Positions 18,428 through 19,601 of a stretch of DNA of 24,912 bases are shown piece after piece. The translations under genes and the position numbers were made by a program. The DNA lies in the IMG/VR virus record IMGVR_UViG_2531839583_000011, positions 1-24,912 of that record; one strand, 5' to 3'. Numbering within the stretch: the first letter of the stretch is position 1; every line of letters begins with the position of its first letter. The notes under the pieces were generated by a model that was not told where the DNA came from, ran no database searches, and saw nothing but the letters and a program-made list of their open reading frames with translations. Origin of the DNA: a virus. Lineage: Duplodnaviria > Heunggongvirae > Uroviricota > Caudoviricetes.

Positions 18428-18511
18428 TTTTTTACGCATAAATTGCTTCAATTCCGGTATGCTTCGCAAAGCTGTATCGCGAGGCGAACCAAGCGCATGA
18501 ACTTTACCAGA

Positions 18512-18539
18512 ACCCGCCATTGAGCGGGTTTTGTTGTTT
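18512..18539 (+). terminator. Intrinsic terminator-like hairpin ACCCGC-cattga-GCGGGT followed by TTTGTTGTTT, about 85 nt after Q stop (possible tR')
   Basis: 6-bp GC stem plus T-rich tract on plus strand. Confidence 0.5.
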
Positions 18540-18760
18540 CTGGGGGGGCATTTCGTTAAATGAAGCTGTGTTGTGCGCAATTAGCTAATAACACGAATCG
18601 TGAATGTATATAATGCGCTTGTTCCTTCGATGGTGTATTCGAATAACGGATTACTGAATACAGCTATCCCATTAAGGGAACACCGCCATCTGCTCATCGG
18701 GAAGAGCCGACCATCATTTAAGTGGTAGGTGTGAGATTCGATACCTCGGTGGCGGTTCTG

Positions 18761-18836
18761 TGCCGACTTAGCTCAGTAGGTAGAGCAACTGACTTGTAAT
18801 CAGTAGGTCACCAGTTCGATTCCGGTAGTCGGCACC
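18761..18836 (+). tRNA. tRNA-Thr, anticodon UGU, 76 nt with encoded CCA
   Basis: Manual cloverleaf: acceptor GCCGACT/AGTCGGC, D-stem GCTC/GAGC, anticodon stem ACTGA/TCAGT with loop CTTGTAA, T-loop TTCGATT (one A-C mismatch in T-stem). Confidence 0.85.
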
Positions 18837-18839
18837 ATA

Positions 18840-18914
18840 TGCGGGTATCGTATAATGGTTATTACCTCAGCCTTCCAAGCTGATGATGCGGGTTCGATTC
18901 CCGCTACCCGCTCC
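18840..18914 (+). tRNA. tRNA-Gly, anticodon UCC, 75 nt with encoded CCA
   Basis: Acceptor GCGGGTA/TACCCGC, anticodon stem TCAGC/GCTGA with loop CTTCCAA, T-arm GCGGG-TTCGATT-CCCGC; 3-nt spacer from tRNA-Thr. Confidence 0.85.
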
Positions 18915-19190
18915 AGCATTTGAAATAAGCCTTATTGTATTGCAGCACTGGCGTATTTTTATTACGTGGGAGCAGGTTGTTTCGAAAAAGCATTCTGTTC
19001 TCTGGCTATGATTTGAGGCCAGGTGTAGCCTCAGTGCTGATTTTTTTACGGCAGCAGAATGGTGCATTATCGGTGGAGATTTTGTATTTCCTGGCAGGGC
19101 CGGTGATGTGCCATCCCGATGTTGTAAACATCGCTAAAAATGACATTGAGATTAATCATATACTAAGCAAAACCTGGAAATACATCCTTT

Positions 19191-19217
19191 ACCGCCTCCA
19201 CCGGGCGGTTTTTTTTA
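19191..19217 (+). terminator. Intrinsic terminator ACCGCC-tccaccg-GGCGGT plus T8
   Basis: 6-bp GC-rich stem followed by TTTTTTTT on plus strand, between the tRNAs and the holin. Confidence 0.6.
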
Positions 19218-19601
19218 TTCTGAACCCTAAAAAAAGAAACACGGACACTGATAATGCCCGTGTGGCAATGCCATGTAAGTTAGCGATGAATATGGCGCAA
19301 AAAAAGCGCGGCCGTCGGATTAACGCCGCGGGACAAAGTCCATGAAGAATCATAAGTATTGGCCTCCTTCTGGGGACATGTTCATACTACTAAGCTTCAG
19401 AAGTGGTTTAAATCATCAAATTAACCTTAATTTTCGATAAGTCTTATTTCATTTCTTTGCGCCACATCTGGCGCGCATCAAATAACGCCACGCAAAGGGC
19501 ATCTGCGGATGCCGGTGCTTTTGACGGGGTGTTTTTTACGGGCCGCTGGTGGCCATTTTTTGTTTCCATTACACAGCGCCCGCATCTGCGAGGTGGGGGT
19601 T

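Follow-up and report, generated by a model that had tools for sequence, protein, structure and literature searches.

A thrU-glyT-type tRNA pair in the late-leader slot of a defective Rac prophage of Escherichia coli

In phage 21, the late region is ordered Q21, pR´ (with a -35 element, a Q-binding element and a -10 element), the transcription start site, a sigma-dependent pause element, the terminator tR´, tRNA-Asn, tRNA-Thr(UGU) and S21, and Sf6 and many P22-like phages carry a tRNA-Thr(UGU) gene in the same slot. In the Shiga toxin (Stx) phages 933W and H-19B, an ileZ-argN-argO cluster lies between Q/tR´ and stx. Multiple phage-flanked copies of glyT, argO and thrU, occurring together, have been reported in Shigella and interpreted as a supply of tRNAs for foreign codon usage (McDonald et al., 2015, PMC4539685). 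Phage tRNA-Thr(UGU), including that of lambdoid phage 21, has also been documented to act in counter-defence: in P2-lambda interference P2-OLD kills chiefly by cutting the low-abundance host tRNA-ThrU at paired CNG motifs in the anticodon stem, and the phage tRNA, in which the motif is altered and the stem shortened, rescues the cells (Govande et al., 2025, PMC12445682). Here we describe a tRNA-Thr(UGU)-tRNA-Gly(UCC) pair within the 1174-bp region at 18428-19601 of a 24,912-nt stretch of viral DNA (IMG/VR record IMGVR_UViG_2531839583_000011, hereafter the window). The window is a defective Rac-type prophage of Escherichia coli integrated at ttcA, and the pair is probably the 3´ part of a widespread lambdoid tRNA cassette that occupies the late-leader slot of this prophage and supplies minor tRNAs.

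The two genes at the center of this analysis are as follows:

18762-18837, plus strand: tRNA-Thr(UGU) with encoded CCA, same as host thrU (ARAGORN, Rfam).
18841-18915, plus strand: tRNA-Gly(UCC) of the glyT type, with a U6-A67 pair, a C>U change in the D-loop and encoded CCA (ARAGORN, Rfam).

ARAGORN, run over the whole window, called exactly two tRNAs, Thr(tgt) and Gly(tcc), and both scored far over the Rfam RF00005 gathering score of 29 (73.8 bits for Thr and 67.8 bits for Gly, E about 1e-14). The two programs thus agree on the pair with encoded CCA that a preliminary description had read from the sequence, and neither cloverleaf was rejected. The genes are separated by a 3-nt spacer, TAT, and both carry RefSeq annotation in the chromosome of E. 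coli strain 300081 (NZ_CM128587.1), to which the 1174-bp region is 100% identical. Threonine identity is specified by G1-C72, C2-G71, G35 and U36, and glycine identity by G1-C72, C2-G71, G3-C70, C35, C36 and U73. All of these synthetase identity elements are present in the respective tRNAs, and none of the changes in the Gly gene falls on them.

The pair was placed in the preliminary description between Q and the holin gene, behind a terminator-like hairpin (18512-18539), and the flanking features bear out both points:

17885-18427, plus strand: Q-like late antiterminator gene, DUF1133 family (Pfam, PHROG).
18508-18543, plus strand: intrinsic terminator, candidate tR´, with a 10-bp stem (18508-18533) and the U-rich tail UUUUGUUGUUU.
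19602-20775, plus strand: lysis cassette of S21-type holin, lysozyme and Rz/Rz1 (PF04971, PF00959, PF03245; RefSeq essD, rrrD and lysis protein).

The 180-aa product of the gene ending at 18427, which is preceded by DUF1367 and YbcO genes, matches PF06576 with 360 bits and PF06530 weakly (27.4 bits, cutoff 26), and is assigned by PHROG to 'anti-termination protein Q-like'. Q21 of phage 21 belongs to PF06530 and has a reciprocal weak match to DUF1133, suggesting that the window protein is a distant relative of Q21. The terminator is kept in the phages 683R6 and SerU-LTIIb, and its position is that of the annotated phage 21 tR´. Three features of the phage 21-type slot, a Q-family gene upstream on the same strand, a tR´-like terminator between and a holin-endolysin-spanin cassette after, are found. 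The window therefore resembles phage 21, Sf6 and the P22-like phages in slot, strand, S21-type lysis cassette, related Q family and the presence of a Thr(UGU) tRNA. It differs from phage 21 in that the latter pairs Thr with Asn, not Gly, and its tRNAs start directly after tR´; in addition, the phage 21 Thr gene has diverged from thrU by ~30%, its CNG motif being altered and its anticodon stem shortened, whereas the window Thr gene is identical to thrU. An altered anticodon arm, unlike that of the window gene, is found in Sf6 as well. The ileZ-argN-argO cluster of the Stx phages is similar in that tRNAs for codons rare in the host lie downstream of Q and upstream of the moron and lysis genes; unlike the window pair, these tRNAs have other anticodons and are not near-copies of host genes.

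Both window genes closely resemble host chromosomal thrU and glyT, as noted from the outset. The Thr gene is identical to K-12 thrU at 76 of 76 positions, and the Gly gene matches K-12 glyT at 72 of 75, the changes being C6>U and G67>A, which are compensatory and keep the pair, and one C>U in the D-loop. The proposal that host sequence had been captured fits this near-identity, but the homology is confined to the mature tRNAs: in a sensitive blastn comparison (word size 7) of 18428-19601 with the K-12 thrU-tufB region, it ended at the mature tRNA ends, plus 1-2 nt. The host operon is ordered thrU-tyrU-glyT-thrT-tufB, with 8 nt, tyrU and 116 nt between thrU and glyT, whereas the window cassette lacks tyrU and thrT, has a 3-nt spacer, and has unrelated flanks and promoter. 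With the homology limited in this way, tyrU missing and no flanks or spacers shared, a recent segmental capture or duplication of the host operon was ruled out.

The suggestion that the pair represents a distinct cargo did not hold: the Thr-Gly cassette is an ordinary, common, annotated and already described feature. With an 81-nt probe spanning the Thr-Gly junction, at least 80% of it covered, the Thr-TAT-Gly unit was found in 869 of 5426 complete E. coli genomes (16%); the whole 1174-bp region is present in just 38-41 genomes. Among species representatives, an exact match to the junction is seen in E. coli, Shigella flexneri, E. ruysiae, Citrobacter braakii and Enterobacter hormaechei, and a further match, on a 423-bp contig with 0.67x coverage in a Corallococcus assembly, is probably contamination. 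The pair is annotated in phages 683R6, PhiR47_1, 606R7, phi467, JLK-2012 and SerU-LTIIb, of which vB_EcoS-683R6 is a full-length Rac phage. The cassette adjoins stx in phi467, and in SerU-LTIIb it lies near the LT-IIb genes and is duplicated. As in other fused thrU-glyT phage cassettes, the window genes are 3 nt apart, are each at least 95% identical to their host counterparts and have phage flanks. The Thr-TAT-Gly unit, the phage flanks and the near-identity to thrU and glyT are likewise what the window shares with the phage-borne glyT, thrU and argO copies published for Shigella in 2015 (PMC4539685). A keyword search of the literature for a Rac-specific or lambdoid description of the Thr/Gly pair returned nothing direct, the nearest papers being PMC12445682 and PMC4539685.

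We compared about 17 independent cassette copies. Variation in the Thr-type genes is mostly at T16C and T20C in the D-loop, and the Gly genes vary at the 6:67 pair as well as at a small number of dispersed sites. Anticodon arms are of the host type in nearly every copy, other than in the JLK-2012 Thr gene (G42U, U43C), an Arg-type copy in SerU-LTIIb (A31G, G35C), a low-coverage contig (L021; G30T) and the JLK-2012 Gly gene (A38G, in the loop). Only PhiR47_1, with TGT, departs from the TAT spacer, and the flanks are unrelated. That nearly all changes spare the anticodon arms and the spacer is almost constant between unrelated flanks points to purifying selection on function or to conversion by the host genes. 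The annotated JLK-2012 tRNA-Thr (L007 2995-3070), for which ARAGORN makes no call, consists of a phage 21-type 5´ half and a thrU-type 3´ half, with G42U and U43C breaking the anticodon stem; its chimeric structure indicates that recombination happens within these tRNA genes. In SerU-LTIIb, the annotated tRNA-Arg(UCU) (L003 1122-1197) belongs to the thrU type and bears five changes, G35C and A31G among them; apparently it is a Thr gene whose anticodon has switched from UGU to UCU, and the whole Thr-Gly-holin unit is duplicated in this phage.

In many copies, Thr-Gly is preceded by two further tRNA genes and makes up the 3´ half of a four-tRNA array, Met(CAU)-Arg(UCU)/Lys(UUU)-Thr-Gly. The preliminary description had set the pair apart from clusters of the Ile/Arg type, a separation that does not stand, given that the full form follows CAU- and Arg(UCU)-type tRNAs in the same arrays. 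The Arg and 'Lys' members, each 77 nt long, are homologues distinguished by the anticodon loop; in the second slot of the array (L015 7194-7270, L016 1403-1479, L005 3002-3078) we observed either the Arg(UCU) loop CUUCUAA or a 'Lys(UUU)' loop, CCUUUAA, with an unusual C33. A remnant of this second member is present in the window:

18682-18758, plus strand: decayed tRNA gene, homologue of the Arg(UCU)/Lys(UUU) second member (alignment).

The remnant aligns with the tRNA-Lys of PhiR47_1 and 606R7 and with tRNA-Arg(UCU) of Shigella and E. coli, and has the anticodon loop CAUUUAA (A33) and no encoded CCA. In its minimum-energy fold it resembles a cloverleaf, but the T arm is aberrant (a 6-bp stem and an 8-nt loop), and the fold is only modestly better than shuffles (z -1.9). 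ARAGORN calls it solely at thresholds lowered to 80% (-ps80), Rfam returned no match to it at E<=10, and close relatives bear differing internal deletions of 8, 10 and 25 nt. The aberrant T arm, missing CCA, weak calls and varied deletions together indicate that the gene is decaying; it has no annotation in any of the 41 E. coli genomes that have it. The homology to the array ends at 18682, and the window, unlike the arrays of the type described in Shigella and the full four-tRNA form, has no Met(CAU) gene and only this decayed second member.

thrU and glyT are single-copy host genes for minor isoacceptors, the thrU-type tRNA reading ACA and the glyT-type tRNA reading GGA and GGG. Taking up the proposal that codon usage be examined for these codons, we compared the RefSeq coding sequences (CDSs) of window-type Rac with 20,289 host codons. 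ACA is used at 19.8 per 1000 in the prophage and 9.7 per 1000 in the host (odds ratio 2.05, p 5e-9, rank 5 of 61 codons), and GGA at 16.0 and 10.1 per 1000, respectively (odds ratio 1.59, p 4e-4, rank 9 of 61), so that enrichment was found for ACA and GGA but not for GGG (odds ratio 1.1). Values for the full-length Rac phage 683R6 are similar. The trkG gene (20913-22370) directly follows the lysis cassette, as it does in 683R6; GGA or GGG accounts for 22 of its 42 Gly codons, and ACA for 10 of its 31 Thr codons.

The identity, integrity, position and conservation of the two genes, together with this codon enrichment, lead us to favor the supply of minor tRNAs as the function of the cassette. 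Late-strand transcripts of the pair would arise in one of two ways, through Q-modified RNA polymerase that passes the 18508-18543 terminator or by initiation at a separate promoter near 18609, and without Q transcription would end at 19191-19217. RNase P would cut the polycistronic precursor at each 5´ end, the 3-nt spacers would be trimmed, and, because the tRNAs are host-type, the host threonyl- and glycyl-tRNA synthetases would be expected to charge the products. The extra copies could then add to the pool of two low-abundance isoacceptors that read codons over-represented in the AT-richer phage genes.

Several observations weigh against this explanation. AGA, AGG and ATA are enriched 3.4-4.3 fold, above ACA and GGA, and the cassette has lost the tRNAs for them; their stronger enrichment and the flat value for GGG suggest that the codon matching is real yet moderate. 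The prophage is defective, with IS1 insertions and truncated structural genes, and offers little late translation to support, the neighboring tRNA gene at 18682-18758 is decaying, and from the promoter scan and alignments no promoter could be assigned to the tRNAs with confidence. The near-identity to the host genes could also stem from gene conversion rather than selection.

Some of the same observations bear on the idea that the tRNAs are inert relics, passive in a decaying prophage, host-like only through gene conversion by thrU and glyT and without a current role. We consider this unlikely. Both genes are intact and high scoring, the Thr-TAT-Gly unit is retained in 16% of E. coli genomes as well as in inducible phages, and the compensatory Gly pair is shared with other phages, which argues against simple conversion by the host copy. 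These features have to be set against the defective state of the prophage, the decay of the adjacent tRNA gene, with different deletions in relatives, the restriction of the exact region to 38-41 genomes, and the recombination within these genes seen in the chimeric JLK-2012 Thr.

A role in counter-defence, in which the cassette would replace tRNAs cut by anticodon-arm nucleases such as P2-OLD, as tRNA-Thr(UGU) of phage 21 does, appears improbable despite several points of agreement. The main P2-OLD target is host tRNA-ThrU(UGU), from whose cleavage a phage tRNA-Thr(UGU) rescues (PMC12445682), and the phage 21 Thr gene occupies the same slot. Relatives have Asn(GUU) and Lys(UUU) in this slot, and these tRNAs are OLD or PARIS targets too; the window Gly gene carries A37 and a paired CAG/CUG motif, which have been described in OLD substrates. 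However, protection requires both alteration of the CNG motif and shortening of the stem and is abolished by the ThrU anticodon arm (PMC12445682), and the window Thr gene has precisely this arm, with both CNG motifs (C28-U29-G30 and C40-A41-G42) and a full 5-bp anticodon stem. It thus shares the UGU anticodon with the OLD-resistant tRNA-Thr21/Thr6 class (PMC12445682) but not the arm feature that defines the class, and is predicted to be sensitive to P2-OLD rather than a resistant decoy. A host-type arm is present in nearly all of the Thr-Gly cassettes sampled, and the main text of PMC12445682 does not list tRNA-Gly as one of the tRNAs that are cleaved. A variant in which the slot is an arms-race locus, with host-type and nuclease-resistant alleles swapped by recombination within the tRNA genes, as in the JLK-2012 chimera, and the pair serving as a dosage buffer against P2-OLD or DARNA, or in which Gly(UCC) is an unreported OLD-class target that is replenished, seems to us quite improbable.

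The alignments with relatives also delimit a series of mosaic blocks around the pair:

17800-18542: Q plus 115 bp, moving as a unit.
18543-18681: lineage-specific block.
18682-18916: tRNA block.
18916-19138: trailer, about 91% conserved in 683R6 and SerU-LTIIb.
19129-19298: lineage-specific insert with a convergent terminator pair.
19299-19998: conserved block running from upstream of the holin gene into it.

Homology breakpoints against 683R6, SerU-LTIIb, phi467 and PhiR47_1 fall at 18761/18762 and 18916, the exact tRNA ends, and it is tempting to see the pair mainly as a recombination linker for swapping Q/terminator, toxin/moron and lysis modules among lambdoid phages, the more so with the cassette beside stx in phi467, near the LT-IIb genes and duplicated in SerU-LTIIb, and with the Thr gene of JLK-2012 a chimera, but such breakpoints are also expected if the tRNAs alone are selected and the flanks are free to diverge, a linker gives no account of why these two particular tRNAs stay intact, and the idea, which we regard as very improbable, is compatible with codon supply and not a true alternative to it.

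Sequences that may drive transcription of the pair lie on both sides of the candidate tR´:

18428-18507, plus strand: leader with a conserved 5´ hairpin at about 18456-18491, in the same mosaic block as Q; candidate late promoter/qut region.
18600-18614, plus strand: GTGAATGTATATAAT, including a perfect -10 hexamer, TATAAT, at 18609-18614 (read from sequence).

The leader and Q form one block in seven phage records, with 80-99% identity. Because the 115 bp 3´ of Q travel with Q, we tentatively place pR´ and the Q-binding site in 18428-18507, and the terminator at 18508-18543 would then be tR´. Neither a consensus scan nor alignment of the Q-linked block revealed a convincing sigma-70 promoter in 18428-18507, the best guess by eye being TTGATT-17-TTCAAT, without an A at -11; the scan gave no identifiable pR´, Q-binding element or sigma-dependent pause element there. 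The second site had been described as a possible extended -10 element (~18604-18615); the TATAAT hexamer is indeed perfect, but the TG (18605-18606) lies two bases upstream of it, not one, so that a canonical extended -10 is not formed. No -35 element is present for this hexamer, and the promoter scan makes no call there. The GTGAATGTATATAAT motif is also found in SerU-LTIIb, RM10740 and EcPNK006, and when the window is aligned with SerU-LTIIb, GTGAATGTnTATAAT stands out as the best-conserved island of a spacer that is otherwise poorly conserved. Judged by sequence, GTGAATGTnTATAAT/GTGAATGTATATAAT may act as a promoter of the tRNAs in its own right, and 19191-19217 would then be its terminator. 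Promoter-like sites are present near the tRNAs in relatives (TTGCGA-16-TATTAT in 683R6, TTGAAC-16-TATGAT in phi467); they are mutually unrelated, lie at similar distances upstream of Thr and are within shuffle expectation in number.

Between the pair and the lysis cassette, the following features were found:

18916-19138, plus strand: conserved non-coding trailer, about 91% identical to 683R6 and SerU-LTIIb.
19191-19217, plus strand: strong intrinsic terminator, a 7-bp GC-rich stem followed by U8.
19229-19263, minus strand: intrinsic terminator convergent with 19191-19217, an 11-bp stem (19263-19239) and a T-run to 19229.
19299-19601, plus strand: conserved non-coding block directly 5´ of the holin gene, with two terminator-like hairpins.

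Indels of 1 nt and 4 nt exclude a conserved reading frame in the trailer. The strong plus-strand terminator, correctly identified at first, sits within the 170-bp lineage-specific insert at 19129-19298. A minus-strand hairpin had been proposed as a terminator at 19299-19331, where the fold is no better than shuffles (z -0.34); the minus-strand terminator at 19263-19239 is the better candidate, with a folding free energy of -14.5, a z of -3.9 against shuffles and a U-rich tail. GC hairpins had been noted upstream of the holin gene as well, and terminator-like structures are found at 19498-19513 and 19541-19554, but the fold of the region does not go beyond shuffles (z -1.3). The 19299-19601 block is 98% identical to 683R6 and 84-90% identical to SerU-LTIIb, and lies upstream of differing holin types. 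In lambdoid prophages, the small RNAs (sRNAs) PasA and PasC have been reported immediately 5´ of the holin-lysozyme genes, the position that 19299-19601 occupies here. Rfam sRNA families gave sub-threshold matches only in the region, for example CyaR at 19146-19215, over the terminator (23.6 bits, gathering score 47), and we judged these to be chance. Three open reading frames (ORFs) lie in the spacer: 19034-19345 (plus strand), a RefSeq hypothetical CDS that crosses the strong terminator at 19191-19217, and 19353-19189 and 19569-19444 (both minus strand). None matched a Pfam or PHROG family, and all three are doubtful as genes. The 19353-19189 ORF encodes 54 aa, has a strong Shine-Dalgarno sequence, GAAGGAGG, 9 nt ahead of the ATG, and leads into the minus-strand terminator.

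The assignment to Rac follows the RefSeq annotation of NZ_CM128587.1, in which ttcA, intR, xisR, ralR, recT and recE are on one side of the 1174-bp region and essD, rrrD, the lysis protein gene and trkG on the other. This annotation also documents the damage to the prophage, with two copies of IS1 and the structural genes past trkG reduced to fragments. The tRNA genes do not serve as the attachment site: both are complete and mid-prophage, and integration is at ttcA, with the prophage's own integrase. The antitoxin sRNA RalA is full-length in the window (1557-1735; Rfam, 218 bits); its partner, ralR, is marked as frameshifted by RefSeq in the identical genome. In the Rac accessory region, beside IS1, a non-canonical purine nucleoside triphosphate (NTP) pyrophosphatase gene and a SIR2-family gene are adjacent (13871-15084) and may be an anti-phage defence pair.

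By itself, the cassette is of little significance, being annotated, common and published in 2015. Its presence in the window indicates that the Rac family once had the standard lambdoid Q-tRNA-lysis late region, which K-12 Rac has presumably lost. The thrU-type Thr gene of the window is the predicted sensitive counterpart of the P2-OLD-resistant tRNA-Thr of phage 21, and the natural cassette alleles form a ready panel for asking which features turn a phage tRNA into a counter-defence and which leave it a codon supplement. In lysogens, additional copies of these two single-copy minor tRNAs may also influence the expression of AT-rich acquired genes such as trkG.

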